From NCBI GenBank assembly GCA_963770955.1, contig CAVYRK010000007.1:145769-209768 (forward strand): a stretch of 64,000 bases of DNA. The letters are read 5' to 3'. This document shows, one piece after another, positions 858 through 41,102 of this stretch. Source of the stretch: an uncultured Actinomycetota bacterium. GTDB lineage: Bacteria; Actinomycetota; UBA4738. The notes below the pieces were generated by a model. The model saw only the letters and a list, made by a program, of their open reading frames with translations. It was not told the DNA's origin and searched no databases. A program made the position numbers and the translations under genes. Each line of letters opens with the position of its first letter. Within the stretch, counting starts at the first letter, position 1.

Positions 858-1517
858 TCAGGCGGATCCGGGCGTCTGGGTGTGGCGCGCGAGGTAGGCG
901 GCCGCCTCCGCGCGGCGTCCCACCTCCAGCTTGGAGAGGATGCTCGAGACGTAGTTCTTGACGGTCTTCTCGGCGAGGTGCAGCTCCTCGCCGATCTGCT
1001 TGTTGGTCTGGCCGTCGGCGACCAGGGCCAGGATGCGCTCTTCCTGCGGAGACAGCCGGGCGAGCTTGTCGTCCTTCATCAGGTGCTTGCCCCTCCGCAG
1101 GCGGTCGAGCACCGCCTTGGTGACCTGAGGATCCAGCAGGCTCTTGCCCTGGCCCACCTCCCTGATCGCCTTCACGATCTCCGTGCCCTGGATCTGCTTG
1201 AGCACGTAGCCGGAGGCGCCGGCCATGATCGAGGCGAACAGAGCCTCGTCGTCGGCGAACGACGTCAGCATCAGGACCTGGGTCTTGGGACGCTTGGCGC
1301 GGATCTCCCGCGTCGCCTCGATCCCGCTGCCGTCCGCCAGGCGGACGTCCATGACGACCACGTCGGGGCGCGTTCGCTCGGCCTCCTCGACCGCCGCGCG
1401 CACCGAGCCCGCTTCCGCGCAGATCACGATGTCGTCCGCCGCCTCGAGCAGGGCCCGGACCCCGTCCCGGACGACCTCGTGGTCGTCCACCAGCATGACG
1501 CGCAGCGGCGTGGTCAT
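858..1517 (-). CDS. dosR: LuxR/NarL-family two-component response regulator, DevR/DosR-like
   Basis: 219 aa with an N-terminal receiver (MLVDDHEVVRDGVRALLE...DVVVMDVRLADGSG) and a C-terminal LuxR HTH (LSPQEERILALVADGQTNKQIGEELHLAEKTVKNYVSSILSKL). Lies immediately downstream of a GAF-GAF kinase. Confidence 0.85.
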   Translation of the reverse strand: MTTPLRVMLVDDHEVVRDGVRALLEAADDIVICAEAGSVRAAVEEAERTRPDVVVMDVRLADGSGIEATREIRAKRPKTQVLMLTSFADDEALFASIMAGASGYVLKQIQGTEIVKAIREVGQGKSLLDPQVTKAVLDRLRRGKHLMKDDKLARLSPQEERILALVADGQTNKQIGEELHLAEKTVKNYVSSILSKLEVGRRAEAAAYLARHTQTPGSA

Positions 1518-1563
1518 GCGCCCATGCTCTCATCCCGGACGGGCTTGGCCCAACCCCGGACCG

Positions 1564-6751: not shown

Positions 6752-9473
6752 TCAGACGCGCCGCGCGCTGATGGGCGGCGGCTTCGGGATGGACTCGAGC
6801 CGGATGCGGGCGTCGACCACCACCGCCCCGTGCTCGAGCACCATCACGGGGTTCAGATCCATCTCGGCGATCTCGGGATGCGCTTCGACCAGGGCCCCGA
6901 CACGCAGGACGAGCTCCTCGAGCGCCGCGACGTCCGCCTTCGGGGCCCCCCGGTACCCGTCGAGCAGCGGGAAGGTGCCGAGGGAGCGCACCATGTCGTG
7001 GACGTTGCGGTCGGTGATCGGGGTGATGCGAACGGCGACGTCCTTCAGCAGCTCCGCCGCCGTCCCGCCGGCGCCGCAGGCAACGACCGGACCGAACACG
7101 GGGTCGTGCACCACCCCGACGAGCATCTCGATCCCGCCCGTGATCATGCGCTGCACGAGGAACCCGGTCGGGTGAAGCCCCTCGTCGACGAGCCGGGCGG
7201 ACATCTCCCGCGCGGCGGCCGTCACCCGCCGCCGTCCCCGGAGGCCGAGGCGGACCAAGCCCGCTTCCGTCTTGTGCGTCATCCCGGGCACGACTGTCTT
7301 GAGCGCGACGGGGCCACGCATGTCCTCGGCCACCCGGCCCGCCTTCGCGGCCGACGACACCGTCGCCTCCTCGACCCGCGTCACGCCGTAGCAGTCGAGC
7401 AGCACGGCGATGTCCTCCGGGGACAGCCAGCCGCCCCCGCGGTCGAGCGCGTCCGCGACCAGGCCTGCCGCCTGGTCGGCGCGAAGGTCGTCGAACACGC
7501 GGACGGTCCCCTCGGGCTGCTCCCGCCAGGTGGCGTAGTCCACCGCCCGGGCGAGTCCGTGCGCGGCGTCCTCCGGGAAGGAGAACGTGGGCAGGTGCAC
7601 CGAGCCGGGCGGATTCAGCGCGGCCGGCGGCCCGGCCGACATCATGAAGACGGTCAGGAGCGGCAGCCGCCCGCCGAGCGACGCGGCTGCCGCGCGAAGC
7701 TCCGTCGCCACGTCCACCGGATCAGTCACGAGCGGAGGGATGAAGATCGCGACGATCGCGTCGGCCACGCCGGCCTCCGCCAGGACCTCGGTGGTCCGGC
7801 GGTAGTGCTCGGCGGTGGCGGAGGCGATCATGTCGACGGGATTCGACAGGCCGGCCTCCGCGGGAAGGAACTCCGCGAGGCGTCCGCGGACCTCTTCCGG
7901 CAGCGTCGGGACTTCCAACCCCAGGCCCTCGCACGCGTCCGCGCAGAGGATGCCGGGACCTCCCGCGTTGGTCAGGATGGCCACCCGGCGGCCGCGCGGG
8001 CAGCGGCTGGTTCGCGAGCAGCGACGCGACGTCGAACAGCTCCTCCAGCGAATCGGTGCGGATGACGCCGGCCTGATGGAAGAGCGCATCCACCGTGAGG
8101 TCGGAGGACGCGAGCATCGCGCCGGTGTGCGAGGACGTCGCGCGCGCGCCCGCCGTCGAACGGCCGCTCTTGACCGCAACGATCGGCTTCGTGCGCCCGA
8201 CCCGGCGGGAGATGCGCGCGAACCGGCGCGGGTTGCCGAAGGACTCCAGGTAGAGCAGGACCAGGGACGTCCCCGGGTCGGCCTCCCAGTACGAGAGCAG
8301 GTCGTTGCTGGAGATGTCGGCCTTGTTGCCCACCGAGATGAACGACGACAGCCCGAGGCCGCGGGCCTGGGCGAGATCCATGACCGCGAGGCCGAGCGCG
8401 CCGCTCTGGGAGAGGAAGCCGATGGTGCCGGGCGGCGGAGAGAGCGGAGAGAACGTGGCGTTCAGGTTCACGTCCGGGTCGGTGTTGACGATCCCCATGC
8501 AGTTCGGCCCGATCAGCCGCATCCCCGACTCGTGGCAGATGCGGACCAGCTCCAGCTGGCGGGCCCTGCCCTCCTCCCCCGCTTCGCCGAAGCCCGCCGA
8601 GATGACCACCAGGCCCCGGACGCCGTTCTCCCCACACGCGCGCGCCACGTCGGCGACGGACGCCGCGGGAACCGCGACGACCGCCACGTCCACGGGCTCG
8701 GGAAGGTCCTCCACGCTCGCGTAGGCGCGCACCGACTGCACGACCTCCGCGCCGGGGTTCACCGGATAGACGGGACCGGTGAAGCCGCTCTCCAGCAGGT
8801 TGTGGAACAGCTCGCCGCCGATCGTGCCGCGTCTCCGTGAGGCGCCGATCACCGCGACCGAGCGCGGGTGCAGGAACAGGCGGAGCGCCGCCACGGCCGC
8901 GGTGTCCTCCCGCGCCTCGAATCGGGTGACCGCCTCGGGCGTCATCGACGTCGGGAACTCCACGAGCACCGCGCCCGGCACGCTTCGCAGCCGGACGGGG
9001 AATCCCGCCTCCCGGAACACCTCGATCATCAGATGGTTGGAGGGCATCACCTGGGCCTCGAACGTGTGAATGCCGCTGTCGGCCGCGTGCTCGGCGAGAT
9101 GCCCCACCATGAGGGTGCCCATGCCCAGCCCCTGCATCGCGTCCGCGACGGTGAACGCGACCTCGGCTCGCTCCGGCGCGGTGCGTGCGTACATGGCGTG
9201 GCCGACCACGCGGGCCTCCGGACCGTGGGTGGCGACGATCGCGTAGCGGTCGCGGTAGTCGACGTCCACGAATCGCTGCGACTCCGCCTCCAGGTTCACG
9301 GACGCGGAGAAGAAGCGCAGGTACCGCGACTCGATGGACAGGTCCTCGAGGAAGCCGGCGATCGACGCACGGTCGTCGGGTCGCACCGGACGCACGCGCA
9401 CGGTCGAGCCGTCGCGAAGCGCGAGGTCGACCTCGCGCCGCGACGGGTAGTCGGTGGGCAGGGTCTCCGTCAT
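6752..9473 (-). CDS. GNAT acetyltransferase fused to an NDP(ADP)-forming acyl-CoA synthetase (CoA-binding + ATP-grasp); PatA-like protein acetyltransferase architecture; apparent frameshift near 7980-8180
   Basis: The N-terminus has a GNAT fold (MQGLGMGTLMVGHLAEHAADSGIHTFEAQV). It is followed by a CoA-binding/succinyl-CoA-synthetase-like domain (PRSVAVIGASRRRGTIGG...GPNCMGIVN...SQSGALG), then an ATP-grasp part in the second ORF (6752..8179). The domains are contiguous only across a frame change. Confidence 0.7.
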
Positions 9474-23587: not shown

Positions 23588-25912
23588 TCACCTCCACTCG
23601 CTCGCCCGACCCTCACCCCGGCGGCCATGCGCCACCAGCACCTGTCCGAGGCTGATCCCTCCGTCGCCCGCGGGCGCCTGTCGCGGCACGAAGACCTGGA
23701 AATCGTTGCGCTCCAGCCGTTCCACTGTAGCGGTCAGGAGCAGATCGTTCTGGAACACTCCGCCCGCCAGGCACACGCGATCCGGGCCGCCGTCGTTCCT
23801 GATGGCGCGGCACACACCCTCGACGGCGGCGGCGACCGCGCGGTGGAACCGCATCGACACGGTGCCGGCATGCTCACCCGCGCCCAGGTCGGACACCACG
23901 GCGGCGATCACGGGCCTCGTGTCCACCAGGAACCGGCCGCCGTCACGCTCCACCGCGGCCGGATACGCTCCCGTCGCGCTCGGGTCCGCGGCCTGCTCCA
24001 GGAGGATGGCCGGCTGTCCCTCGTACGTCGCCCGGCCGCACACGCCGGCGAGCGCGGCCACGGCGTCGAACAACCGGCCCGCCGAGCTGGTGAGCGGCGA
24101 GGCCAGGCCGGTGTCGAGCTGCGCCAGCACGACGCCGCGTTCCTCGTGGGACAGTCGATCGGCGCCGCCTCCGTCCACGAGCGCGAGCGCTTCCTCCAGC
24201 ACACCGGCATCAAGGGCATGCGCCAGCGCCATGCGCTCGGGCCGCCGCACGGCGGCGTCGCCGCCCGGCTGACGCACCTGGCGCAGGTGCCCCGCGCGCT
24301 CGGCGCGCCGCTCGTCGCACACCAGGAATTCCCCGCCCCAGGCGGTTCCATCCTCGCCCAGGCCGAACCCGTCGAACGCCACGCCGAGCACCGTGCCGGT
24401 GAGGCCGTGCTCGGCCATGACGGCGGCGACGTGCGCGTGATGGTGCTGCACGGCGACCGACGGGAGGCCGAGCGACTCGGCCAGCCGTGTGGACGCGAAG
24501 TCGGGATGCAGGTCGTGGGCGACCACCTCCGGCTCGATGCCGAACAGGGCGCGGTACCGCTCCAGCGCCGCCCGGAACGCCGCGACGGTCGGTTCCGAGT
24601 CCAGGTCACCGACGTGCTGGGAGAGGAAGGCCCGGTCCCCGCTCGCCAGGCAGAAGGCCGCATGCAGCTCGGCCCCGACCCCCAGGGCCGGGATCACCTC
24701 GTGGGCGAGCCGAAGGGGCGCCGGAGCGAGCCCCCGGGCCCGGCGCATCACGGCCGGCGCGCCGCGCCAGACCCTGACGACCGAGTCGTCGTAGCGCGCG
24801 ACGATGTCCCGGTCGTGCACCAGGAAGGCGTCGGCGATGGCTCCGAGGGTCGTCGCCGCCTCGGCGTTCCCCGTGCAGATCGGCTCATCGGATCGGTTCC
24901 CGCTCGTCATCACCAGCGGGCGCCCGGCCTCGCGCAGCAGCAGATGGTGCAGCGGCGTGGAGGGCAGCATCGCCCCCTGGCGCCGGTGTCCGGGGGCCAC
25001 GGACTCCGCCAGCAGGCCGCGGTCGCGGACCAGCACGATCGGAGCGACGGCGCCGGCGAGCGCCCGCTCGTCGTCGGGGGAGAGATCGAACCGGCGGCGC
25101 GCCTCGTCGAGCGTCGCCACCATCACCGCGAACGGCTTGTCCGGGCGCGCCTTCCGAAGGCGCAGCTCGCGGACCGCCCGGTCGTTCGTGGCGTCGCACG
25201 CCAGCTGGAAGCCACCCAGGCCCTTCACGGCGACGATCGCGCCGGCACGCAGCAGCCGCGCCGCGGCCTCGATGGGATCGTCGTCCCCCGTCCCGAGCGC
25301 GCGTCCGTCGGCCGCGACCAGCGAGATTCGCGGGCCGCAGGCCGGACACGCCACCGGCTCGGCGTGGAAGCGCCGGTCCGCCGGGTCCCCGTACTCGCGC
25401 GCACAGGCCGCGCAGAGCGGAAAGGCCCGCATGCTGGTGCGCTCGCGGTCGTACGGGAGCCCTTCGATGATCGTGAACCGCGGGCCGCAGTCGGTGCAGT
25501 TCACGAACGGGTACCGGTGGCGGCGGTCGCCGGGGTCGAACAGCTCCGCGAGACAGGCGGCGCACGTGGCGACGTCCGGCGGAACCATCCGGCCCGCCTC
25601 GCCCGCCTCGCCCGCCTCGCTCGCCGCGACCACGAACGACGAGCGGCCCGTCGCGAGGGCCGGTGTGGTGCGGACCGAGTCGACGCGCGCGAGCGGCGGC
25701 GCCTCCCGGGCGATCGCGTCCGTGAAGGCCTCCAGCGCCTCCGGACGGCCTTCGGCCCGGATCTCGACCACGCCGTCCCGGTTGCGCACCCATCCCCCCA
25801 CCCCGTGGCGTTGCGCCAGCCGCCACACGTGCGGCCGGAACCCGACGCCCTGGACGACGCCGCGCACCTCGACCTCGAGCGCCCGCACGTCCGTCCGCAG
25901 CGCCTCCGTCAT
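23588..25912 (-). CDS. hypF: Carbamoyltransferase HypF
   Basis: 775 aa from MTEALRTD. N-terminal acylphosphatase (VRGVVQGVGFRPHVWRLAQRHGVGGWVRN), two CxxC Zn-finger pairs, then YrdC and Kae1-like regions. Confidence 0.9.
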   Translation of the reverse strand: MTEALRTDVRALEVEVRGVVQGVGFRPHVWRLAQRHGVGGWVRNRDGVVEIRAEGRPEALEAFTDAIAREAPPLARVDSVRTTPALATGRSSFVVAASEAGEAGEAGRMVPPDVATCAACLAELFDPGDRRHRYPFVNCTDCGPRFTIIEGLPYDRERTSMRAFPLCAACAREYGDPADRRFHAEPVACPACGPRISLVAADGRALGTGDDDPIEAAARLLRAGAIVAVKGLGGFQLACDATNDRAVRELRLRKARPDKPFAVMVATLDEARRRFDLSPDDERALAGAVAPIVLVRDRGLLAESVAPGHRRQGAMLPSTPLHHLLLREAGRPLVMTSGNRSDEPICTGNAEAATTLGAIADAFLVHDRDIVARYDDSVVRVWRGAPAVMRRARGLAPAPLRLAHEVIPALGVGAELHAAFCLASGDRAFLSQHVGDLDSEPTVAAFRAALERYRALFGIEPEVVAHDLHPDFASTRLAESLGLPSVAVQHHHAHVAAVMAEHGLTGTVLGVAFDGFGLGEDGTAWGGEFLVCDERRAERAGHLRQVRQPGGDAAVRRPERMALAHALDAGVLEEALALVDGGGADRLSHEERGVVLAQLDTGLASPLTSSAGRLFDAVAALAGVCGRATYEGQPAILLEQAADPSATGAYPAAVERDGGRFLVDTRPVIAAVVSDLGAGEHAGTVSMRFHRAVAAAVEGVCRAIRNDGGPDRVCLAGGVFQNDLLLTATVERLERNDFQVFVPRQAPAGDGGISLGQVLVAHGRRGEGRASEWR

Positions 25913-26397
25913 CGGCGCGCGACCCCGGCGAGCTCTCTGGCGACGCCGGCCGCCGCGGCGGCGACGTCCGGAATCGCCGCCAGAACCGGGGGCGAGAGCG
26001 GGCTCCCGGCCGCGACGTCGCGCACCTCGACCCCGACGAACGCCACCCGGGAGGGCACGCCCACCGCCGCGGCGACCCCCACGGTCTCGGCGACCCCGAG
26101 GCCGTGCGAGGACAGCGCGGAGCGCAACCCGTCGGGAATGCCGTCGCGGAGGTCGTCCACCCGCACGACCTCTCCCGGCCGGTACGCCCCGCGCGACCGC
26201 ACCGCGTCGACGACGACGGCCGGGATTCCGTCCTGCAGCAGGTCCAGCAGCCGCAGAGGCGAGCCGGCCTCGACGACCTCGGCGCCCGGCACGTCTCGGA
26301 GCAGCCGCCGGATCTCGGCCGCGGCCGCGAGGCCGGCGCCGTCGTCGCCCGCATCGGGATTGCCGCAAGCGATCACGCGGACCGCGGCCTCGCTCAT
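25909..26397 (-). CDS. Hydrogenase maturation (C-terminal processing) endopeptidase
   Basis: [26 protein letters not shown]... is typical of HycI/HoxW-type proteases. ~162 aa. Sits between the large subunit and hypF (ATGA overlap). Confidence 0.8.
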   Translation of the reverse strand: MSEAAVRVIACGNPDAGDDGAGLAAAAEIRRLLRDVPGAEVVEAGSPLRLLDLLQDGIPAVVVDAVRSRGAYRPGEVVRVDDLRDGIPDGLRSALSSHGLGVAETVGVAAAVGVPSRVAFVGVEVRDVAAGSPLSPPVLAAIPDVAAAAAGVARELAGVARR

Positions 26398-27710
26398 TCC
26401 CGGCGCACGTCCAATCGAAGGAAGTGTGTCGCGCAGGAGATGCACGGGTCGTACGTCCGAACGAGCATCTCGCACGACAGCGCGAGCTCCGGGTCGGGTT
26501 GGTGGACGACGCCGGGAATGAACGCCCGGAGGTCCTCCTCGATGTGCCGGAGGTTCTGTGAGGTGGGCGGGACGATCTTCGCCTCGAGGATCGTGCCGTC
26601 GCCGCCCACGTCGTAGCGGTGGAAGAGGATGCCGCGAGGAGCCTCGGTCACCCAGGCGCCCCGCCCCGCCTTCGGCCGGACGTCGGCCATGGGCGGCTCG
26701 GGAGGCTCGTACGCCTCGATCAGGCGCAGCGACTCCTCCAGGGCGACCGCCGTCTCGACGACCCGGGCCGGCATCGACGCGAAGCGATCGCGCACCGCAC
26801 CCCCGTCGACGCCGAGCCGGACCGCCAGCTCGGCCGCCACCGGCGTCAGCCGGCCCCGGTTCAGGTTCAGCCGGGCGAGCGGCCCCACCATGTAGGAGCC
26901 GCCGCCGGTGAACCGGGCGTGCAGCGCGTTGGAGTGCTCGACGTGCAGCTCCTCGACGGTCGTCCTCGAACGTCGCCGCGTCGAACGCGCGGCCCTCCGT
27001 CGACGCCAGCGTCCCCTCGTTCATCGGGTACTCGTCCGGATGCACCATCGCCACCATCTCGGTCGCGAGGTCGAAGGACGGCGCCGGCAACCCCGACGCC
27101 CACTCGGCGACGTCCCGGATCGCCGCGATCGCGTCCTGCGAGTCGGCCGGACAGCGCGCGCAGGTCCCGCGGTCGCGGCGCGCGCGAGAAGCCACCCACG
27201 CGCGGAGACACCGGATGGATCTCGCGGCCGCCGATCGTGGCCAGCAGGTCGTTGCCCAGTCGCTTGATCCGCAGGCCGCGCTCGACGGCGGCCCGTTCGC
27301 GCTGCGCCATCTCGATCGCGCTGTCGTATCCGAGGAGGTCCGGCGCGGCCAGCAGGTGGACGTGGAGCATGTGGCTCTCGATCCACTCCGCGCAGTACAG
27401 CATCCTGCGCAGCTCGCGCGTCCCCGGCGGCACCTCGCACCTCGAACAGCTCTTCCAGCGCGTGCACCGCGCTCATCTGGTACGCGACCGGACAGATGCC
27501 GCAGATCCGGGGAACGATGTCGGGCACCTCCGAGAAGTGGCGCCCGGCCAGGAAGGCCTCGAAGAACCGGGGCGGCTCGTAGATGTCCAGCCGGAGGTCG
27601 ACGATCTCGTCGCCGCGAAGCCCGAGGTGCAGCGCGCCCTCGCCCTCCACGCGGGCGATGGCCGGCACCTCGATGAGGCGGTTCGGCGACGCGGGGTTCG
27701 CGTGGGTCAC
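26394..27710 (-). CDS. hyhL: NiFe hydrogenase large (alpha) subunit, group 3b type; currently broken into three frames (at least 3 indels, including a 7-bp tandem duplication at 27431-27444)
   Basis: N-terminal [12 protein letters not shown]...[14 protein letters not shown] (RxCGxC). The mid-region [23 protein letters not shown] and [16 protein letters not shown] are in different frames. The C-terminus carries the DPCxxCxxH nickel motif ([10 protein letters not shown]) followed by a cleavable tail. Confidence 0.85.
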
Positions 27711-28511
27711 GTCGCGCACCTCCCGTTCCTGCGTCCCCTCGGTCTCCGGTTCGTCGAAGGCGTCCCGGAACGCGGGCGCCCATCCGGTGATGAACCGGAA
27801 GCTGGACGCGGCCAGCGACGGGGACATCCCGAGCTGGACGAACTGGCGGCGAAGCGCCTCCACGTTGGGCGGCTGCGAGGGACCGAAGCAGCCGTAGCAC
27901 CCGCGGCCGAAGGCGGGGCACAGCGCGCCGCAGCCGGTCCGCGTGACCGGTCCGAGACACGGCTCGCCCTTGGCCACGACCACGCAGACGTACCCGCGCC
28001 GCTTGCATTCGACGCAGACCGGCACGGTCGACACGCGAGGCATGGCGCCCTGCAGCAGTGACGCGATCGCGCCGAGCAGCTGGCCGCGGTCCACCGGGCA
28101 GCCCGTCAGCTCGAGGTCCACCCGCACGTGGTCGGCGATCGGCGTGGACGTGGCGAGCGAGCTGATGTACTCGGGCGTCGGGTAGACGGCCCGCACCGTC
28201 TCGCCCGCGTCCATCCAGTTGCGGAGCGCCTGCACGCCGCCCGACGTCGCACACGCGCCGATCGTCATCAGGAACGTCGAGACCTCGCGGATATGCGCGA
28301 TCTCCTCCAGCTGCGCCGGCGTCGACACCGACCCCTCCACGATCGTCACGTCGTAGGGGCCGGGGTCCGTGTGCGAGGTCGCCTCGGTGAACTGCACGAT
28401 GTCCACGGCCGTCGCCAGGTCGAGCAGCGCCTCCTCGGCGTCCAGCAGCTGCAGCTGGCACCCGTCGCACGAGGCCATCTTGAACACCGCGATGCGCGGC
28501 CGGGCGCTCAC
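27708..28511 (-). CDS. hyhS: NiFe hydrogenase small (delta) subunit, group 3b type; reads through into the large subunit with no in-frame stop (probable indel near its 3' end)
   Basis: (V)[23 protein letters not shown]..., [14 protein letters not shown] and the distal-cluster Cys motifs [12 protein letters not shown]...[30 protein letters not shown] start overlaps the gamma stop (GTGA). Confidence 0.8.
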
Positions 28512-29383
28512 AGCTCCGCCACTCCCAACCACTCCTCGGCCGTGCTCCAGGGAAAGACCGGCCCGTCGTGACACACGAACACGGGACCGAACTGGCAGTG
28601 CCCGCACAGGCGCACGGCGCACTGCATGTTCCGTTCCATGGACACCCACACGTGGTCCGGCGAAACGCCTCGGTCGACGAGACCCTTCGCCGCGAACCGC
28701 ATCATGATCTCCGGACCGCAGACGAACGCGGTCGTCCGGTGCGGGGCGAGCCCGGCCTGCTCGTACAGCGTGGTCACCACGCCGTGGGTGAACGGCCACG
28801 CGTCGTCCGGCACGTCGACGGTCTGATGGACCTCGATGGCGCGGTCGCGGATCCAGTGGCTCCACGCGTCGAGCTGGTGCCGGTACAGCATGTGCTCGGG
28901 CCCGCGGGCGCCGACCAGGATCATCACGCGGCGGAACCGCCTCCGACGGTGGATGGCCCGGTAGATGATGGGGCGCACCGGAGCGAGCCCCAGGCCGCCG
29001 GCCACGATGAGCAGGTCGCCGCCCTCGGCCTCGTCGACCGGCCAGGGCCGCCCGTACGGACCGCGCAGCCCCAGGCGGTCACCCGGACCGATCGACCGGA
29101 ACAGGTCGGTCACCCGTCCCGTGGCCCGGATGGTGTGGGCCAGGCGCTCGGGCGCGCCGGGTCCGACGAGATCGAGATCGGCACCTCTCCGGATCCGAAG
29201 ACGTACAGCATGTTGAACTGCCCGGGCAGGAACCGGTAGGCGGCCCGCCGTTCCGGGTCCGCGATGGACAGCCAGTACGTCGCGGTGTCGGGCGTCTCCT
29301 GCACGACCCGCCGCACCACGCGCGACCGAGTCCGGCATCAGCGAAACCGCCGGAACGGCCGCCGGGGCGACGACGGTGGTCAT
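28508..29383 (-). CDS. hyhG: Hydrogenase gamma subunit (FAD/NAD(P)-binding oxidoreductase with a C-terminal 2Fe-2S site); 1-2 apparent frameshifts (~29150 and ~29330)
   Basis: The N-terminal part [45 protein letters not shown] is in ORF 29110..29319. It continues in another frame as [15 protein letters not shown]...[13 protein letters not shown]...[23 protein letters not shown]. Confidence 0.75.
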
Positions 29384-30501
29384 TCGGACGGTACGGCGGC
29401 CACGACGACCCCGTCCTCGATGCGGATGGCGGCGATCTCCTCGGTCACGTCGATCCCCACGGGACACCAGGTGATGCACCGGCCGCACCCGACGCACCCG
29501 GAGGTGCCGAACTGGTCGATCCACGACGCGAACTTGTGCGTCAGCCACTGCCGGTAGCGCGACGAGCGCGCCGTTCGGACGTCCCCACCCACGGTGTGGC
29601 TGAACTCGTCGCTGAAGCACGAGGCCCACTCGCGGGTCCGCGTCGCGGTGGTTCCCAGGATGTCGGTCGCGTCCACCACGTCGTGGCAGAAGCACGTCGG
29701 GCACGCGGACGTGCAGTTCCCGCACGCCAGGCAGCGGTCGCCCACCTCGAGCCAGCGCGGATGCTCCCGGTTGCGGTAGAGCAACCCCGGCAGGTCGCCG
29801 GTCTCCAGAGCCCGTCCCATCGCGCCGGTGGCCCGCTCGGTGACCTCCCGGTCGGCCCGTTCCTCGTCGGGGGTGGCCTCCCGGGCACCGGCCGCCAGCA
29901 GCAGCTCGGCCCCGAGCTCGGTGCCGGCGTCCGCGACGAAGCCCCCGTCCAGCTCGGTCAGGGAGACGTCGAACCCGCTCGAGCACCGGGGTCCCGTTCC
30001 CATGGACGCGCAGAAGCACGTCCCCCCGGGGAACTCGCAGTTCATCGCGACGAACACGGCGTCGCGCCGCCGTTGGGCGTACGCCGGGTCCGGGGCCGGA
30101 CCCTCCAGGAACACGCGATCCTGGACGGCCACGGCGTGCAGGTCGCAGGAACGGATGCCCACGAATGCGATCGGCCGCTCGTCCTCGGGCGTGGCGGGCT
30201 CGAATCGCAGATCGCCGTCATCGCGCGCAGCGGTGCCCAGGACCTCGCGGGCGGGAAAGAGGAAGCGCTTGGCCGAGTCCGGCCCGTGGGCGAACCCGAA
30301 CCACCGGTCGTCCGCCCGTGGGACGACCCGGTACCGGCCGGCCTCCTGCTCCTCGCCCATCCCGCGCGGAAGCTCGTCGGAGGACGAAATCTCGTCGAGC
30401 ACGATCGCCCCGTCGCGGACGGTGGGTCCGATCAGCCGGTATCCGCGGCCGACCAGATCCTCGAGCAGCCGTTCGAGTCCACTCCTGTCGACAAACCGCA
30501 T
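29380..30501 (-). CDS. hyhB: Hydrogenase beta subunit (4Fe-4S ferredoxin-type, sulfhydrogenase HydB-like)
   Basis: 373 aa with Cys-rich motifs CEFPGGTCFCASMGTGP, CLACGNCTSACPTCFCHD and CVGCGRCITWCPVGID. Confidence 0.8.
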   Translation of the reverse strand: MRFVDRSGLERLLEDLVGRGYRLIGPTVRDGAIVLDEISSSDELPRGMGEEQEAGRYRVVPRADDRWFGFAHGPDSAKRFLFPAREVLGTAARDDGDLRFEPATPEDERPIAFVGIRSCDLHAVAVQDRVFLEGPAPDPAYAQRRRDAVFVAMNCEFPGGTCFCASMGTGPRCSSGFDVSLTELDGGFVADAGTELGAELLLAAGAREATPDEERADREVTERATGAMGRALETGDLPGLLYRNREHPRWLEVGDRCLACGNCTSACPTCFCHDVVDATDILGTTATRTREWASCFSDEFSHTVGGDVRTARSSRYRQWLTHKFASWIDQFGTSGCVGCGRCITWCPVGIDVTEEIAAIRIEDGVVVAAVPSE

Positions 30502-31744: not shown

Positions 31745-32176
31745 TCAGGCGACGGGCACGGGCTGCACCAGCTCGACGCGAACCTCGGGCGGCTGGCGCA
31801 TCGAGTTGTGGACGGTGCACCGGTCCACGACGGCCCGGAGCCCGTCCAGGCGCTCCGGCGGGAACCCCGCGGGAAGCGCCAGATTGACGTCGATGCGCGA
31901 CACGCGTGCCGGATGCTCCGCCATCTGGAACCGGCACTGCACGCGCAGCCCGTCGGCGTCGATCTCGTGGCGCCGCATGTATCGCTCGGCGAAGTACCCG
32001 ATGCAGGCGCCGAGCGAGACGACGAACAGCTCCACCGGGGTGGGGCCGAGGTCCTGGCCACCCGCGTCGTACGGTTGGTCGGTGGTCAGGAAGTGCGCCC
32101 GCACGTCGACCACGAACGAGTCGCCGGAGGTCCAGTAGACCGAGATGCCGGAGCGGGAGGCCGTCATCGCACCCAC
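31745..32176 (-). CDS. OsmC/Ohr-family peroxiredoxin-like protein
   Basis: 143 aa. Motif GPTPVELFVVSLGACIGYFAE matches the OsmC fold and first Cys region. Confidence 0.8.
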   Translation of the reverse strand: MGAMTASRSGISVYWTSGDSFVVDVRAHFLTTDQPYDAGGQDLGPTPVELFVVSLGACIGYFAERYMRRHEIDADGLRVQCRFQMAEHPARVSRIDVNLALPAGFPPERLDGLRAVVDRCTVHNSMRQPPEVRVELVQPVPVA

Positions 32177-32177
32177 C

Positions 32178-32726
32178 TCAGATGAAGAGCGTGATGGCGT
32201 CCTGGGCTTCCATCAGCATGGTCGTCGCGCCGGCGGGCTCCGACAGCCCGTCGATCATGTCCTCACGACGGAGCCCCAGGAGGTCCATCGTCATCTGGCA
32301 GGGGACCAGCTTCACCCCGAGCGCCACGGCAGTCTGCAGCAGCTCGCCCGGGCTCGCGACCTCGTGCTCGCGGGCGAGGTGCTTCATCATCGCGGGCCCG
32401 GCCCCGGCGAAGTTCATCTTGCCGAGCTTCAGGTGCTCGATGCCCGGGCGATCCATCATCGCCATCATCTTCTGCATCCAGTCGTCGCCGGTGATCCGCA
32501 CGTCGTCCTTCACCAGGGCGAACAGCCCCCAGAAGGTGAAGAACACCGTGGTGTCCATCCCCATGGCCGCGCCCGTGGTCGCCAGGATCATCTGCGGCCA
32601 CACCTTGTCCAGGTCGCCGCTCCACGCGATGATCACCAGCTTCTGGTGGGGAACGTGCTCGTGCGTATGCGCCGGGACCGGCGTCTCCTGCTCTCGGACC
32701 GCTTCATCGATCGCCACGTGACTCAC
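32178..32726 (-). CDS. DsrE/DsrF-like sulfur-relay family protein (copy A)
   Basis: KLVIIAWSGDLDKVWPQMILATTGAAMGMDTTVFFTFWGL...GVKLVPCQMTMDLLGL matches the DsrE/YchN fold. The probable GTG start overlaps the tusA stop (GTGA); the upstream 26 codons of the called ORF are likely not translated. Confidence 0.65.
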   Translation of the reverse strand: MSHVAIDEAVREQETPVPAHTHEHVPHQKLVIIAWSGDLDKVWPQMILATTGAAMGMDTTVFFTFWGLFALVKDDVRITGDDWMQKMMAMMDRPGIEHLKLGKMNFAGAGPAMMKHLAREHEVASPGELLQTAVALGVKLVPCQMTMDLLGLRREDMIDGLSEPAGATTMLMEAQDAITLFI

Positions 32727-32956
32727 CCCTTCCTCAACAGGAAGCGGAACACGCCCGCCTCCTCGGTCTGCTCGACGAGCTCGTTGCGCGTGGCCCGGCA
32801 CCAAGCCGAGAAGTCCGGCACCGACCCGGGGTCGGTCGCCAGCACCTCGACGACGTCACCGGTCGCACACTCCTTCATTGCCAGCGCCGTCTTGACGATC
32901 GGCATCGGACAGGCAAGGCCCTTCAGATCCAACTGCTTGGCGATCGTCACGCTCAT
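32723..32956 (-). CDS. tusA: TusA-like sulfurtransferase (SirA/YedF family), copy A
   Basis: 77 aa with the CPxP motif (LDLKGLACPMPIVK). Confidence 0.8.
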   Translation of the reverse strand: MSVTIAKQLDLKGLACPMPIVKTALAMKECATGDVVEVLATDPGSVPDFSAWCRATRNELVEQTEEAGVFRFLLRKG

Positions 32957-32969
32957 TTGCGCCCTCCTC

Positions 32970-34118
32970 TCACATGGCCCGTTCCGGGATCCGGCCTTGC
33001 GGCACGGTCACCCAGTACAGGCGGTTGAACATCCACTTGGCCGAGTGCCACAGCGCCGAGGGCGCCGGCGGCACCGGCGGGTGCTCGTAGTCGAATCGAA
33101 GCGCGGTGGCCTTGCGGCCGCCCGTCTCCAGGAAGCACATGACGCGCCCGCCGTAGTTGGTCCGCGGGGCCGTCCCCCGGACCAGGGACGCGATGCGGCT
33201 CGCGACGACCGGCGCCTCGAAGTGCGCCGTCGACCCGCTCTTGCTGATCGGGAGGTTCGTCGCGTCGCCCAGGGCGAAGATGCGCTCCCGCCCCTCGACC
33301 TGCAGCGTGTGCCGGTCGGTCGGGACCCATCCGCCCGCGTCGCCGAGTCCAGCGTCCTCGATGACCTGTTGCCCCCGGTGGGGCGGCACCAGGACGAGAA
33401 GGTCGTATTCGGCCTTCTCGCCCTCGAGCGACTCGACGGTCCCCGCGTCCGGATCCACCGACTCGACGTTGAAGAACGTCTGGAGCCCGATGCCCCGGCG
33501 CTCCATGATCGGCTGGACCAGCTTCGAGGCCGGCTCCACCGTGAACGCGCGGCTGAGCGGCGACAGCAGCGTCACCTCGCTCCGGTCGCGAATCCCCCTG
33601 CGGCGCAGTTGCTCCTCGATCAGCAACACGTACTCGACCGGCGCGGGCGGGCACTTGTAGGGAATGCCGGCCACGCCGACCAGGAGGCGGCCGCCGCGAA
33701 ACGCGCGCGCGGCCTCGCGGAGGCGCAGCGCGCCGTCCAGTGAATAGAAGTGGTGCGCGCCCTCGACCATCCCCGGCACGTTCTCGGGAAGCAGGCGAGC
33801 TCCGGTGGCCAGGACCAGGTAGTCGTACGGCACGGTCGACCCGTGCTCGAGCCGGACCACGCCCTCCCCGGTGTCGATCGCCGCTGCGGCCTCCACCGCC
33901 AGCTCGACGCCCGGTCGCAGCAGGCCTCGCTCGTCGCGGGACAGCCACCGGCCGTTCGCCTGGCCGAGCGCGACGTACAGGAAACCCGGCTGGTACTCGT
34001 GCATCCCCGTGGGGTCGACCACGGTGACGCGGGCGTCACGGCCGAGTTGGCGGTCCAGCAGGTTGGCGACCAGGGTCCCTCCGACCCCGCCGCCCAGCAC
34101 CACGATGCGCGCCGGCAT
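32970..34118 (-). CDS. sqr: Sulfide:quinone oxidoreductase (FAD-dependent pyridine nucleotide-disulfide oxidoreductase)
   Basis: N-terminal FAD site IVVLGGGVGGTLVANLL. Conserved KCPPAP cysteine motif and a second Rossmann region (ALGDATNLP). 382 aa. Confidence 0.8.
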   Translation of the reverse strand: MPARIVVLGGGVGGTLVANLLDRQLGRDARVTVVDPTGMHEYQPGFLYVALGQANGRWLSRDERGLLRPGVELAVEAAAAIDTGEGVVRLEHGSTVPYDYLVLATGARLLPENVPGMVEGAHHFYSLDGALRLREAARAFRGGRLLVGVAGIPYKCPPAPVEYVLLIEEQLRRRGIRDRSEVTLLSPLSRAFTVEPASKLVQPIMERRGIGLQTFFNVESVDPDAGTVESLEGEKAEYDLLVLVPPHRGQQVIEDAGLGDAGGWVPTDRHTLQVEGRERIFALGDATNLPISKSGSTAHFEAPVVASRIASLVRGTAPRTNYGGRVMCFLETGGRKATALRFDYEHPPVPPAPSALWHSAKWMFNRLYWVTVPQGRIPERAM

Positions 34119-34124
34119 GGCGCG

Positions 34125-34364
34125 TCACCGGCTCTTCCGGATGACGAACCGCGCGAATCCATCCTCGTCGGCGACCTCGACCAGCTCGTGGCCGGCCTTG
34201 GCCGTCCAGGCGGGAATGTCGGTCCGCGACCCGGCATCGCTCGACAGGACGGCGATCACGCGTCCCACCGGCTCCTCGCGGATCGCTCCGATCAGCGACA
34301 GCAGCGGGCCCGGGCACGCCAGGCCTCGCGCGTCGATCTCCCGATCCACCTGTACGACGGTCAT
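34125..34364 (-). CDS. tusA: TusA-like sulfurtransferase, copy B
   Basis: 79 aa from MTVVQVDREIDARGLACPGPLLSL (CPxP motif). The upstream ~290 codons of the called ORF are junk. Confidence 0.8.
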   Translation of the reverse strand: MTVVQVDREIDARGLACPGPLLSLIGAIREEPVGRVIAVLSSDAGSRTDIPAWTAKAGHELVEVADEDGFARFVIRKSR

Positions 34365-34378
34365 CGATCTCACTCCTC

Positions 34379-34807
34379 TCAGATGAAGACGACCTGCCCG
34401 TCGGCGTTCACCAGGAACAACGCGACGCCGGCCACGTCGTCCACGATCGGATCCATGTCCTCCATGCCGAGCCCGAAGATCTCCATCGAGTTGGCGCACG
34501 CGTGCACGTGGACCTCGCCGACATCCTTCGCCTGCCGGAGCGTGTCGCTCCAGTGCTGGTGGCCGCGCCGTTCGCTGGCCCTCCAGAGCGCCGTGGATCC
34601 TTCGCTCCCGGCCTCGGGCGCCAGCCCGTGGTCCTTGGTGATCCGGTCGGCCTGAAACGCGTCGAGCGCCCAGTACTGCAGCAGCACGTCCACGCGCTTC
34701 CCGAGGGCGGCGGCCCCCGCGATCAGGATGGATGCGGCCGTCAACTTGTCGTCGGTTCCGGAGAACAGCACGACGGAGAACCCTTCTGGTTCCTGCTGTT
34801 CGCTCAT
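34379..34807 (-). CDS. DsrE/DsrF-like sulfur-relay family protein (copy B)
   Basis: 142 aa from MSEQQEPEGFSVVLFSGTDDKLTAASILIAGAAALGKRVDVLL...HACANSMEIFGL, a DsrE/YchN-like fold with the conserved Cys in HACANS. Confidence 0.65.
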   Translation of the reverse strand: MSEQQEPEGFSVVLFSGTDDKLTAASILIAGAAALGKRVDVLLQYWALDAFQADRITKDHGLAPEAGSEGSTALWRASERRGHQHWSDTLRQAKDVGEVHVHACANSMEIFGLGMEDMDPIVDDVAGVALFLVNADGQVVFI

Positions 34808-34874
34808 GTCCCGTTCCTTTCCGCCTTGCACGCACCCACAGTCGTTCACCGCGCACCCGGAGCGTGGGGCCGCC

Positions 34875-34943
34875 GGACCCGCATTGGAGGGGTCCAACGG
34901 CAGGACACCCGGGGGGGCCGGTCGTCCCGGACGGCGCGGGACC
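34875..34943. promoter_or_regulatory. Pair of inverted repeats in the divergent DsrE / flavodoxin-CBS promoter region: GGACCC-N9-GGGTCC (34875-34895) and GTCCC-N9-GGGACC (34924-34943)
   Basis: Read directly from the sequence. Arm sequence and 9-bp spacer are the same as the element at 3697-3717. Confidence 0.3.
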
Positions 34944-35012
34944 GACGACCCGAGGAGGGACGCGGGCCGCGGTGGATGCTCGGCGTGACCGACGACGAGG
35001 GAGGGATCGACG

Positions 35013-35537
35013 ATGCGTGCGCTCGTGGTGTTCGAGTCGGCGTTCGGGAACACGGAGAAGATCGCTCGGGCGATCCAGGAGGGCTTGACGTCGCTGGTGC
35101 CGACCCGTGCCATCGAGGTCGGCGGCGCGGCGCGCGAGCTCGGTGGCGACATCGACCTGCTCGTGGTGGGTGGGCCGACACAGGCGTTCGGCATGAGCCG
35201 GTCCGGAACGCGTCAACAGGCGGCCAAGCAGGCCGAGCACGGGGTGGTGTCGGACGGGATCGGAATCCGCGAGTGGCTCGCGGGCCTCGACGGCCCGGCC
35301 CCGCGGCTCGCCGCCGCCTTCGACACGCGCTTCAAGAAGCCCCGCTTGATCACCGGCTCGGCCGCGCGCTCCGCCGAGAAGCGGCTCCGGGAGCTCGGGT
35401 GCGGGATCGCCGCCCCGGCGGAGAGCTTCTTCGTGTCGGGGACGACCGGACCGCTCCTGGACGGCGAGGTGGAACGGGCCCGCCGGTGGGGAGAGCGACT
35501 GGGGTCGCTTGTGGAAGAGGCCGTGTCGCGATCATGA
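35013..35537 (+). CDS. Flavodoxin-like fold protein (hypothetical)
   Basis: The N-terminus MRALVVFESAFGNTEKIARAIQEGL is typical of flavodoxin-domain proteins. 174 aa. Confidence 0.55.
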   Translation: MRALVVFESAFGNTEKIARAIQEGLTSLVPTRAIEVGGAARELGGDIDLLVVGGPTQAFGMSRSGTRQQAAKQAEHGVVSDGIGIREWLAGLDGPAPRLAAAFDTRFKKPRLITGSAARSAEKRLRELGCGIAAPAESFFVSGTTGPLLDGEVERARRWGERLGSLVEEAVSRS

Positions 35538-35578
35538 TTGGGGCCCAGCCGACCGCCCATTCCCGGGGAGGAGTGACC

Positions 35579-35974
35579 ATGCCCAAGGCCGAGGACTACG
35601 TGAAGGAGCTCATGACGTCGCCGGTGGTGAACGTGGCCCCGCACGCAACGGTGGCGCAGGCCCTGCGGGCCATGATCGATCACGACATCGGTGCCGTGGT
35701 CGTGACCGAGACCGACAAGCCGCTCGGCGTGTTCACCGAGCGCGACCTGTCCCGCGGCATCCTCGACGACCCCGATCTCCTCGGCCGGCAGGTGGCAGAG
35801 GTGATGTCCTCGCCCGTCGTGACGGCGGGACCGGACGAGGAGGTCGTCTTCATCTTCCGGCGTATGGCCGAGAAGCAGATCAGGAGACTCCCGGTCGTCG
35901 ACGACGGCCACCTGATCGGCATCGTGACCGAGCGTGACCTGCTGCGGTGGGTGGACGCCGTCGCCTCGTCCTGA
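35579..35974 (+). CDS. CBS-domain pair protein (Hrp1/Rv2626c-like)
   Basis: 131 aa with two CBS motifs (ELMTSPVVNVAPHATVAQALRAMIDHDIGAVVVTETDKPLGVFTERDL; VAEVMSSPVVTAGPDEEVVFIFRRMAEKQIRRLPVVDDGHLIGIVTERDLL). A good SD GGGGAGGAG sits upstream. Confidence 0.85.
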   Translation: MPKAEDYVKELMTSPVVNVAPHATVAQALRAMIDHDIGAVVVTETDKPLGVFTERDLSRGILDDPDLLGRQVAEVMSSPVVTAGPDEEVVFIFRRMAEKQIRRLPVVDDGHLIGIVTERDLLRWVDAVASS

Positions 35975-39788: not shown

Positions 39789-41102
39789 TCAGAGCGACTC
39801 GCCGCGGATCGACGCCCAGAGCAACTCCATCGGGTGATAGACGGGCAGCGGCCGGCCCATCGCCTCCAGGTGTGTGGTGATCTGCAGCGCGCAGCCGGGA
39901 TTGCCCGCGACGATCGCCTCAGCTCCCGTGGCCAGCAGGTTCTCGGCCTTGCGACGCCCGAGCGCGTCGGCCGCTTCCGGCTGCAGCACGTTGTACAGGC
40001 CGGCGGAGCCGCAGCAGAGCTCCCACTCCTTCGGCTCCACGATCTCCAGCCCGGGAATCGAGCGCAGCGCCTCACGCGGTTGTGCGCGGACGCCCTGCGC
40101 GTGCGCGAGGTGGCACGCGTCGTGGTAGGCGACCCGCATCCGCACCGGGCGCCGGGGGGCCGCGACCGGCGCGCCGGCAAGGATCTCCGACACGTCCCGC
40201 ACGTGGCCCGAGAAAGCGCGAGCGCGGTCGCGCCAGCGCGGGTCGTCCTCCAGCAAGGCCCCGTACTCCTTCATCGCCGACCCGCAGCCGGCGGCGTTCA
40301 CCGCGACCAGGTCGCAGCCCTCCAGCGCCGCGATCGCGCGGCGTGCGAGCGAGCGCGCTTCCTTCTCCTCCCCCGCGTGGGAGTGCAGCGCGCCGCAGCA
40401 CCGCGGGTCGCGCGGCGCGATCACCTCGTAGCCCTCGGCGGCCAGCACCCCGGCCGTCGCCCGGTTGACGTCGGAGAAGAAGACCCGCTGCACGCACCCC
40501 TGCAGGAGCGCGACGCGGCCGCGGCGCTCGCCGGCCGCGGGCGTGCGCTCCGGCAACGGGGCACCACCCCGTGCCGGGGTCCGGGGCGCCAGCCGCGCGA
40601 GCGCGGAGAGCCGTGGGATCCGGCCGCGCGCAGTCCGTCCGCTCACGGCGCGATCCAGCCGGAGGAAACGGGCCGCCGTCAGCAGGGGGAGCGCCGCCCG
40701 CAGCCGCTTCGGATGCGGGAACAGCGCGAACACCATCCTCCGAAGGCCGCGCTCGGACCGCGAGCGCGTGTGGTTCCGCTCGACCTGCGGGCGCGCCGCC
40801 TCGATCAGCCGTCCGTACTGCACGCCCGACGGACAGGCGGTGACGCACGCCATGCATCCGAGACACCGGTCCAGGTGCGTGACCATCGCGTCGCTCATCA
40901 CGCTGCCCGGCGTGAGGCCGTCGTTCATCAGGACGATGCGGCCGCGAGGCGAGTCCATCTCCTCGCCCCACAGCACGTACGTGGGGCACGTCGGCAGGCA
41001 GAACCCGCAGTGCACGCACGCGTCGATCAGGTCCTGCCGTGGGGGGTGGAGCGCGTCGAACGCGCCCGGCCCATGCGGAACGCGCGGCTCGCCGTCGGCC
41101 AC
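39789..41102 (-). CDS. glcF: Glycolate oxidase iron-sulfur subunit GlcF
   Basis: Two 4Fe-4S motifs (CVHCGFCLPTCPT; CLGCMACVTACPS) and C-terminal CCG domains (CCGALHSH...; CCGSAGLYN). GTG start overlaps the glcE stop. Confidence 0.8.
   Translation of the reverse strand: MADGEPRVPHGPGAFDALHPPRQDLIDACVHCGFCLPTCPTYVLWGEEMDSPRGRIVLMNDGLTPGSVMSDAMVTHLDRCLGCMACVTACPSGVQYGRLIEAARPQVERNHTRSRSERGLRRMVFALFPHPKRLRAALPLLTAARFLRLDRAVSGRTARGRIPRLSALARLAPRTPARGGAPLPERTPAAGERRGRVALLQGCVQRVFFSDVNRATAGVLAAEGYEVIAPRDPRCCGALHSHAGEEKEARSLARRAIAALEGCDLVAVNAAGCGSAMKEYGALLEDDPRWRDRARAFSGHVRDVSEILAGAPVAAPRRPVRMRVAYHDACHLAHAQGVRAQPREALRSIPGLEIVEPKEWELCCGSAGLYNVLQPEAADALGRRKAENLLATGAEAIVAGNPGCALQITTHLEAMGRPLPVYHPMELLWASIRGESL

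Follow-up and report, generated by a model that had tools for sequence, protein, structure and literature searches.

A strongly conserved gene set pairing a predicted type III-like sulfide:quinone oxidoreductase with two TusA and DsrE2-family carrier modules in an uncultured Actinomycetota bacterium

The operon and its products

Which molecule accepts the sulfane sulfur made by sulfide:quinone oxidoreductase (SQR), and how toxic polysulfide is avoided in the cytoplasm, are questions that have been answered in part, the known answers being rhodaneses and small thiols. They are raised again by a stretch of 64,000 nucleotides from an uncultured Actinomycetota bacterium (assembly GCA_963770955.1, contig CAVYRK010000007.1, positions 145,769 to 209,768; G+C about 71%), which is called the window here. 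Between positions 31745 and 34807 its minus strand holds six packed genes in the order DsrE_A, TusA_A, SQR-like, TusA_B, DsrE_B and OsmC. Conservation of the gene set is strong and its functions fit together, and we consider it probable that this operon serves the oxidation of sulfide and the handling of its sulfane sulfur, which would pass from SQR to TusA_A and on to carriers of the DsrE2 family. A persulfide relay of the SQR-TusA-DsrE kind is a reasonable reading of these genes.

The six genes, all on the minus strand, are the following.

34379 to 34807, minus strand: DsrE_A, first gene of the operon, 142 residues, DsrE2B-like sulfur carrier with predicted active-site Cys104 (codon 34496-34498)
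34125 to 34364, minus strand: TusA_A, TusA-family carrier of 79 residues, Cys17 in CPGP, stop codon 6 nt ahead of the SQR start
32970 to 34118, minus strand: SQR-like flavoprotein binding flavin adenine dinucleotide (FAD), 382 residues, type III-like, PF07992
32723 to 32956, minus strand: TusA_B, TusA-family carrier of 77 residues, Cys16 in CPMP
32178 to 32726, minus strand: DsrE_B, 182 residues, PF13686/DsrE2-like carrier with predicted active-site Cys143 (codon 32298-32300)
31745 to 32167, minus strand: OsmC-family protein, last gene of the operon, 140 residues, with Cys55 and Cys117

Read from the sequence, the intergenic distances are, in gene order, 14, 6 and 13 nt, a 4-nt overlap and 10 nt. 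Since no gap exceeds 14 nt, the six genes are taken as a single operon. The overlap is that of the GTG start codon of DsrE_B with the stop codon of TusA_B (GTGA). A divergent intergenic region of 205 bp borders the operon upstream; on its downstream side a CBS gene converges on it, with its end at 31734. The six minus-strand reading frames with the domains named for them in the initial annotation, and the KCPPAP motif in SQR, were confirmed by Pfam and by the sequence itself. All six proteins pass the Pfam gathering thresholds; below, Pfam scores are given in bits with the gathering cut-off after the slash.

Conservation of the gene set

Species-representative genomes of GTDB were scanned with patterns of the flavoprotein, and at least 523 of them have a confirmed relative; related protein clusters number more than 5,000. 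The best 80 of these (at least) 523, together with one locus from a 3-Mb genome, gave a survey set of 81 loci on which the six window proteins were mapped. Of the 81 loci, 66 have all five core genes, in two gene orders; they come from Actinomycetota, Chloroflexota, Dormibacterota and others. The five-gene pattern, for which a neighbourhood survey had been suggested initially, thus recurs in several phyla, and because of this recurrence it is far from chance.

The order of the window, DsrE_A-TusA_A-SQR-TusA_B-DsrE_B, is found in 35 loci from Actinomycetota, Dormibacterota and some Limnocylindria, and the order DsrE_A-TusA_B-DsrE_B-TusA_A-SQR in 31 loci from Chloroflexota. Six further loci (Nitrososphaeria, Acidimicrobiia and some Chloroflexota) have DsrE_A-TusA_A-SQR alone and three, including Chloroflexus islandicus, only TusA_A-SQR. 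The last six are unclassed, five being cut by contig ends (L018, L028, L044, L070 and L075) and one, L024, having no detectable DsrE_A. Wherever sequence upstream of the SQR gene is available (79 loci), the gene directly before it is TusA_A; the median gap is 6 nt (20 nt or less in 67 of 78, with eight overlaps). OsmC is an accessory member of the gene set: its gene adjoins in 10 of the 81 loci, namely nine of the 35 with the window order and L018, which is truncated at its 5' end.

The initial annotation had described the two carrier pairs as a mirror duplicate. However, within the window DsrE_A and DsrE_B are only 27% identical and TusA_A and TusA_B only 39%, and a recent duplication was rejected on these values. 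In a nearest-neighbour test the closest relative fell in the protein's own group for 138 of 138 DsrE and 149 of 149 TusA sequences. The A and B copies are ancient paralogues, each forming an orthologous group across phyla, and the two pairs are separable modules, since some lineages have only one of them. What looked like a mirror duplication is really two ancient and separable carrier modules, and besides the mirror order there is a second common one. That the genes stand together by chance, or arose by a recent local duplication without functional meaning, has in its favour only the mirror-like appearance of the gene order; the divergence of the copies, their orthologues across phyla, the constant place of TusA_A and the close packing of the genes all speak against it. 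It is excluded by the conservation data, and we put its probability close to nil.

Related modules were also found on plasmids. In Haloarcula hispanica pHH406 (L083; HISP_RS17695-17730, record 72292-77675), a locus that is known from RefSeq annotation and is unstudied, an A-type TusA gene overlaps the start of the flavoprotein gene and is followed, after the latter, by DUF1641. A convergent B-type TusA-DsrE pair comes next, then a metallo-beta-lactamase (MBL)-fold protein resembling a rhodanese-persulfide dioxygenase (PDO) and two YeeE/YedE proteins, and a thioredoxin is also nearby. Identities to the window proteins are 44% for the A-type TusA, 42% for the flavoprotein, 52% for the B-type TusA that is paired with DsrE, and 34% for the B-type DsrE. 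Unlike the window, pHH406 has neither DsrE_A nor OsmC, and it has DUF1641, the MBL-fold protein and the two YeeE/YedE proteins; these are the candidate sulfur sink and transporter, which were not found in the window. A Chlorohelix plasmid (L082) carries TusA-SQR-rhodanese-glutaredoxin, together with TusA, an A-type DsrE and TrxB.

More distant homologues of the flavoprotein in Proteobacteria, at about 35% identity, are paired with DUF1641 and lack TusA; the TusA-coupled enzymes thus form part of a wider family. Two such homologues followed by DUF1641, with TusA and DsrE absent, are on a Burkholderia thailandensis plasmid (L084) and on P. aeruginosa pKLC102 (L085). The latter is typed as conjugative by PLSDB, and genes of an integrating conjugative element adjoin its flavoprotein-homologue locus.

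The SQR-like flavoprotein

Judged from its sequence, the flavoprotein is most likely a type III-like sulfide:quinone oxidoreductase. It matches PF07992 (Pyr_redox_2; 75.6 / 26.1), and among the matches listed its nearest named relatives belong to metagenome-assembled genomes labelled Actinomycetota or Actinomycetes (72-79% identity). The FAD-binding Rossmann motif GxGxxG is present as GGGVGG at residues 9-14, invariant in a 15-sequence alignment, and KCPPAP is at residues 155-160. Exactly two cysteines occur in the protein, Cys156 (codon 33651-33653) and Cys328 (codon 33135-33137, in VMCFLETG), and they are conserved in 81 and 82 of 82 homologues, respectively. With two cysteines in total, the protein lacks the third one to which FAD is covalently bound in type I enzymes, and the absence of this cysteine is a type III trait.

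The best match among solved structures is human SQOR (E 6e-40, SQR residues 5-353), with both catalytic cysteines aligned; these are Cys201/Cys379 in the human enzyme and Cys159/Cys339 in type III enzymes (PMC13047784). The human type II structure scored 140 bits, compared with 88 bits for type V and 66-75 bits for type I, and flavocytochrome c sulfide dehydrogenase also scored much lower than human SQOR. The type II Sqr of Staphylococcus is about 26% identical to the window SQR. The sole SQR model of NCBIfam that was matched is the type III selenoprotein subtype NF049943, with a nearly full-length alignment and 348.7 bits (E 4e-104), below its cut-off of 525 bits. The type III label follows the classification of Marcia et al. 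2010 and is founded on profile and pairwise scores.

The C-terminus is aromatic-rich (WHSAKWMFNRLYWVTV) and has the conserved motif wH..K..FN..YW.tVP.GR. A single helix that is likewise conserved and aromatic-rich is predicted at residues 355-371 (low-confidence model, hydrophobic moment 0.29), and this segment could be an interfacial membrane helix.

It may be asked whether the flavoprotein reduces quinone at all in vivo. It could act instead as an oxidoreductase of TusA-bound persulfide or of polysulfide, or give its electrons to a soluble partner, for instance the flavodoxin-like neighbour, within a redox module for hypoxia or dormancy. Bacterial type III enzymes are described as the least understood type (PMC10205796, PMC4584964), the one from C. 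tepidum was found without SQR activity (PMC4584964), and the C-terminus of the window protein is shortened. Moreover, a flavodoxin-like gene is near the cluster in seven of the 81 loci, directly after SQR in one of them, and the window operon is placed among CBS genes, a group-3b-like NiFe hydrogenase and a DosS/DosR-like pair. However, the flavodoxin and hydrogenase surroundings are not a conserved trait of the loci. In the protein itself a second GxGxxG motif, which would bind NAD(P)H, is not present, the region around KCPPAP is SQR-like, and the conserved C-terminal motif fits an interfacial membrane helix. The reduction of sulfur by menaquinol is, in addition, thermodynamically uphill from established redox potentials. 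We regard a role other than quinone reduction as very unlikely.

The TusA, DsrE and OsmC proteins

Both TusA proteins match PF01206 (TusA_A 73.7 / 28.6, TusA_B 85.2 / 28.6). They reach 43 and 51 bits with the NCBIfam equivalog model of E. coli TusA, which has a cut-off of 78, and are therefore members of the TusA family and not equivalogs of the E. coli type. Cys17 of TusA_A is conserved in 79 of 79 orthologues and Cys16 of TusA_B in 70 of 70, while Cys30 and Cys53 of TusA_B vary.

The two DsrE proteins are DsrE2-like and belong to PF13686. DsrE_B matches PF13686 (DrsE_2) with 156.3 / 25 and PF02635 (DsrE) marginally, with 22.8 / 22.7, and DsrE_A matches PF13686 with 41.0 / 25 and falls below the cut-off for PF02635 (16.6). 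The profile check that had been proposed initially thus turned out well for PF01206 in both TusA proteins and for PF13686 in both DsrE proteins, and the DsrE family PF02635 that it had named was reached narrowly by DsrE_B and missed by DsrE_A. DsrE_A has no match in NCBIfam, the DsrE2 equivalog NF047629 included; DsrE_B scores 91.1 bits with this model, below the cut-off of 210, a weak match that is a likeness to DsrE2 of Allochromatium vinosum.

The best PDB match of DsrE_A is 2QS7, which we take to be SSO1126 (E 3.5e-23), and DsrE_B matches 2QS7 (E 1.5e-17) and 3PNX (E 1.5e-16), the active-site cysteine being aligned in each case. The structure 2QS7 is of the Sulfolobus DsrE2B type (PMC11094781). 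Each window DsrE has one conserved cysteine, Cys104 of DsrE_A in 72 of 72 orthologues and Cys143 of DsrE_B in 66 of 66, and the Cys-x7-Cys motif of DsrE3A is absent from both. No transmembrane segment is evident in DsrE_B, nor are there membrane helices such as are ascribed to DsrE2A. A group named DsrE4 has been defined by the position of its genes, downstream of one for sulfide:quinone oxidoreductase (Liu et al. 2014, PMC4175335); DsrE_B, whose gene is the second one after SQR in the operon, fits this positional definition.

The OsmC-family protein matches PF02566 (55.9 / 27.5), and its Cys55 and Cys117 are conserved in 12 of 12 sequences. With the NCBIfam model for OsmC-related (seleno)proteins it scores 42.9 bits, below the 95-bit cut-off.

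These carrier types bear on the possibility that thiosulfonate (-S-SO3-) is moved instead of persulfide, as by DsrE3A and TusA of M. cuprina, for example with sulfite as the acceptor of SQR or with tetrathionate as the substrate. Sulfite can be used as sulfane acceptor by human-type SQRs, and this counts in favour. The TusA and DsrE3A proteins of M. cuprina take up thiosulfonate that stems from tetrathionate, whereas NaSH, GSSH and polysulfide give no reaction with them (PMC4175335). However, the window DsrE proteins are DsrE2-like (PF13686), with their single conserved cysteines in place of the DsrE3A motif, and no gene for thiosulfate:quinone oxidoreductase (TQO) or tetrathionate hydrolase was identified among the annotated neighbours. 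We give thiosulfonate transfer only a slight probability. At the far end of the window, 31 kb from the operon, there is a DoxX-family membrane reading frame (139-675, minus strand) with a weak Pfam match of 24.3 bits. DoxX/DoxD proteins are linked elsewhere to thiosulfate:quinone oxidoreductase and to thiol homeostasis.

Comparison with published systems

The initial annotation had considered the arrangement not to be a described operon type. In fact, an association of SQR genes with those for TusA and DsrE has already been published, for M. cuprina, M. fumariolicum, S. aureus (CstA) and Bacillus (yrk), and two carrier pairs with OsmC and with neither PDO nor rhodanese are a variant of it. Because the three-gene core module is published, the claim of novelty was overstated; for the five-gene arrangement with two pairs, no describing paper was found in the literature searched. 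The initial annotation had itself asked whether the pattern might be common and already characterised: common it is, characterised biochemically it is not.

The SolV operon of M. fumariolicum, MFUM_v2_0219-0221, encodes a type III SQR, TusA and DsrE2 (Schmitz et al. 2023, PMC10205796). By gene order (SQR, then TusA, then a DsrE2-type gene) it is like the SQR-TusA_B-DsrE_B half of the window operon, whereas the window adds the upstream pair DsrE_A-TusA_A and OsmC. In cells adapted to sulfide, which oxidise H2S to S0, expression of MFUM_v2_0219-21 is raised about 1.7-fold, and quinone reduction by type III SQRs is on record; the carrier proteins were not studied biochemically (all PMC10205796).

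In the sulfur island of M. cuprina, Mcup_1722 (TusA), Mcup_1723 (SQR) and Mcup_1724 (DsrE4) are adjacent (Liu et al. 2014, PMC4175335). Here too SQR is flanked by TusA on one side and by a DsrE-family gene on the other, but there is one carrier of each kind, the organism is a thermoacidophilic archaeon and the genes stand among those for TQO and sulfate transport. No experiments were done on DsrE4 (PMC4175335). The relation of the window operon to MFUM_v2_0219-21 and to Mcup_1722-24 is one of family assignment and gene order.

The cst operon of S. aureus (cstR-cstA-cstB-sqr) encodes CstA, a fusion of rhodanese, TusA and DsrE/TusD, and B. licheniformis and B. subtilis have yrkD-J with sqr-pdo, in which YrkE is a DsrE and YrkI a TusA homologue of undescribed function (PMC9918477, PMC9163753). 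These operons resemble the present gene set in that SQR is co-located with TusA and DsrE-like modules, and their CstR-type repressor of the CsoR family can be compared with genes of L001 and L021 (see below). Nevertheless, their SQR is of type II, about 26% identical to that of the window, and they always come with PDO (CstB in S. aureus), rhodanese domains and TauE. The absence of PDO and rhodanese noted by the initial annotation was borne out by tblastn of the whole 64-kb window. They also come with CstR, and tblastn found no homologue of CstR or ArsR in the window.

Relays of persulfide from TusA to DsrE are established in A. vinosum (PMC4175335, PMC11094781). The rhd-tusA-dsrE2 genes of this organism, and the TusA-DsrE3 pair of sHdr systems, share with the window the passing of a cysteine persulfide between TusA and trimers of the DsrE family (PMC11094781), which in our case is suggested by the genes. 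In contrast to those systems, Dsr, sHdr, LbpA and rhodanese genes are not near the window operon.

The proposed sulfur route

In the route that we favour, Cys156 and Cys328 of SQR, with FAD, would oxidise HS-. The quinone pool, which is presumably menaquinone, would receive the two electrons, and the sulfur would be left on SQR as a cysteine persulfide or trisulfide, as homology and the published activity of type III enzymes suggest. The sulfane sulfur would then go to Cys17 of TusA_A and would be neither released as polysulfide nor given to a small thiol or a rhodanese. This step is proposed from gene context, translational coupling of TusA_A to SQR being nearly universal. From TusA_A the sulfur may be handed to Cys104 of DsrE_A and, through Cys16 of TusA_B, to Cys143 of DsrE_B. 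The B pair probably links to the consumer that each organism has of its own, which could be the MBL-fold PDO-like protein with YeeE in haloarchaea, and rhodanese, glutaredoxin and TrxB in Chlorohelix. Speculatively, Cys55 and Cys117 of OsmC might serve an optional thiol-dependent reductase or peroxidase, guarding against reactive persulfide and polysulfide species or resolving them. What finally becomes of the sulfur is not encoded in the window.

This route is in agreement with the predicted active-site cysteines of the carriers and of SQR, which are invariant or nearly so across 66-82 orthologues, and with the haloarchaeal and Chlorohelix modules, which stand beside MBL-fold PDO-like, YeeE, rhodanese, glutaredoxin and TrxB proteins. 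The regulators of related loci, which look like sensors of thiols or persulfides (see below), also speak for it.

Several points weigh against it. The SQR C-terminus is about 25 residues shorter than that of human SQOR, the last helix has an only moderate hydrophobic moment (0.29), and the AlphaFold2 model of SQR, built from the 15-sequence alignment whose members are all at least 76% identical, is of low confidence (mean pLDDT 46, pTM 0.40). No sulfur sink was found nearby, whether PDO, rhodanese, YeeE, sHdr or (among annotated neighbours only) TauE. Type III SQRs outside this operon context were reportedly measured by Lencina et al. 2013 and by Han & Perner 2016, and a requirement for TusA is not said to have been reported. 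For the C. tepidum type III SQR no activity was detectable in membranes (PMC4584964). In vitro, the DsrE2B of M. cuprina was inert towards every sulfur compound that was tried, and neither TusA nor DsrE3A passed anything on to it (PMC4175335); DsrE2B is the type of 2QS7, the nearest solved relative of DsrE_A. In the literature searched, no test of sulfur transfer from SQR to TusA was found.

The lack of an oxidative sink nearby can also be taken as a sign of assimilation, in which SQR would make TusA-bound persulfide for biosynthetic thiolation (Fe-S clusters, molybdenum cofactor, tRNA and thio-cofactors), with DsrE as a buffer or store. TusA is an established persulfide donor for tRNA thiolation and for molybdenum cofactor in E. 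coli (summarised in PMC4175335), and in L001 a cysteine-desulfurase-like gene adjoins the CsoR-like regulator that is divergent from the cluster. However, this desulfurase neighbour (family F54) is present in only two of the 81 loci, the company of the haloarchaeal and Chlorohelix loci (PDO-like, YeeE, rhodanese and TrxB) is typical of detoxification or oxidation, and the SolV operon responds to toxic sulfide (PMC10205796). Assimilation is in our view rather unlikely, and we keep to sulfide oxidation with a TusA/DsrE relay.

Genomic neighbourhood

Using haloarchaeal and Chlorohelix queries, tblastn of the 64-kb window found no homologues of PDO, rhodanese, YeeE, DUF1641, glutaredoxin or TrxB. 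With the CstR-like (CsoR) and ArsR-like regulators of related loci as queries, it likewise found none. TauE was not seen among the annotated neighbours, no direct search for it having been made. In the flanks annotated with Pfam, which extend about 6 kb towards the hydrogenase and about 12 kb in the opposite direction, there are no hdr-like or LbpA genes, and an hdr-like (sHdr) sulfur-oxidation locus was rejected for that reason. These flanks encode CBS and CBS-BON proteins, NiFe hydrogenase and its maturation genes, flavodoxin-like, SRPBCC and HlyD-like proteins, a class III aminotransferase and GlcDEF. Their only CCG-domain protein (39789-41102) stands beside GlcD/GlcE-type FAD proteins and therefore looks like a glycolate oxidase subunit and not an Hdr protein.

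On the divergent side the features are the following.

34808 to 35012: divergent intergenic region of 205 bp, the presumed promoter location
35013 to 35537, plus strand: flavodoxin-like protein of 174 residues, a divergent neighbour whose membership in the system is not implied
35534 to 35974, plus strand: CBS-domain-pair protein, a neighbour gene whose start is ambiguous (35534 or 35579)

Of the two divergent neighbours named initially, the CBS protein stands, with two CBS domains and 113 bits for PF00571, whereas the flavodoxin-like reading frame has sub-threshold flavodoxin matches only (PF00258, 21 / 25). Homologues of the latter are found at up to 6 kb from the cluster in L002, L043, L057, L059, L071, L077 and L081; in L059 the gene directly follows SQR and in L002 it is upstream on the same strand. 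The association is loose but repeated.

The cluster of a group-3b-like NiFe hydrogenase (25909-30501) lies about 1.2 kb past the OsmC end, beyond two CBS genes. The enzyme has four subunits, a Fer4_22 subunit, a NAD_binding_1/DHODB Fe-S subunit, an Oxidored_q6 small subunit and a NiFeSe large subunit, and a HycI protease is encoded as well. The frame of the large subunit switches three times (26394-27698, minus strand), which indicates either a pseudogene or assembly indels. Elsewhere, two long reading frames rich in G+C at third codon positions (6752-8089 and 7722-9473, minus strand) overlap by about 370 nt and may be one frameshifted gene; if so, this would fit indel errors of the assembly. 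The minus strand at 858-3183 encodes a NarL/LuxR-type response regulator next to a sensor kinase that has HisKA_3, HATPase and two GAF domains; the pair resembles mycobacterial DosS/DosR. Taken with the CBS genes and the hydrogenase, it gives the window the look of an island of the hypoxia or dormancy type.

Regulation

The divergent promoter region contains an imperfect inverted repeat at 34915-34951, GGGCCGGTCGTCCCG-N7-CGGGACCGACGACCC, with arms of 15 nt that are 73% complementary. The repeat consists of two one-mismatch matches to the DosR-box-like sequence GGGACN4GTCCC. Over the whole window there are 10 such matches for 9.4 expected, which is no enrichment, and as a regulator site the repeat is a weak lead. 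No sigma-70 consensus was found in the divergent region, and a terminator scan gave one terminator-like site only, which is intragenic. Counting k-mers upstream of DsrE_A in 37 actinobacterial-type loci revealed no convincing shared operator; matches in Chloroflexota were rejected, as they are coding sequence of an ArsR gene.

This ArsR-family gene heads the cluster, in the same direction, in Chloroflexota loci (L039-L081; for example L047, 3688-4077). Its single cysteine is conserved in 24 of 26 sequences, and the protein is a candidate sensor of sulfane sulfur of the SqrR/BigR kind, though with one cysteine in place of two. In L001 (4863-5168) and L021 (4919-5188) there is instead a divergent CsoR-family gene (PF02583) whose product has Cys-x28-Cys and a Gln at the position of the copper-binding His, and which in these sequence features resembles CstR; the next gene in L001 codes for a class V aminotransferase of the cysteine-desulfurase-like kind. 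We infer that the ArsR and CsoR-family genes of the relatives fit a control that responds to thiols or persulfides.

Significance

Because TusA_A adjoins SQR invariably, the two TusA/DsrE2 modules keep invariant cysteines and the system is widely spread, with relatives in at least 523 genomes, the survey gives the hypothesis that TusA is the direct partner and dedicated sulfane acceptor of this SQR subclass. Haloarcula hispanica with pHH406 and Chlorohelix are cultured carriers and thus possible experimental hosts.

A further possibility is held only tentatively: type III SQRs coupled to TusA, recognisable by PYKCPPAP and by a translationally coupled A-type TusA gene upstream, would form a subclass of their own, and two distinct DsrE2-family carriers would partition the sulfur. 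H2S could by this route be turned into protein persulfide with no need for persulfide dioxygenase or rhodanese. This route would be widespread in soil Actinomycetota, Chloroflexota and Dormibacterota, in some Nitrososphaeria and in haloarchaea, and could serve sulfide scavenging, assimilation or the energy metabolism of persistence. If the relay is true, sulfide detoxification in abundant soil phyla would gain a branch that runs through protein persulfide.

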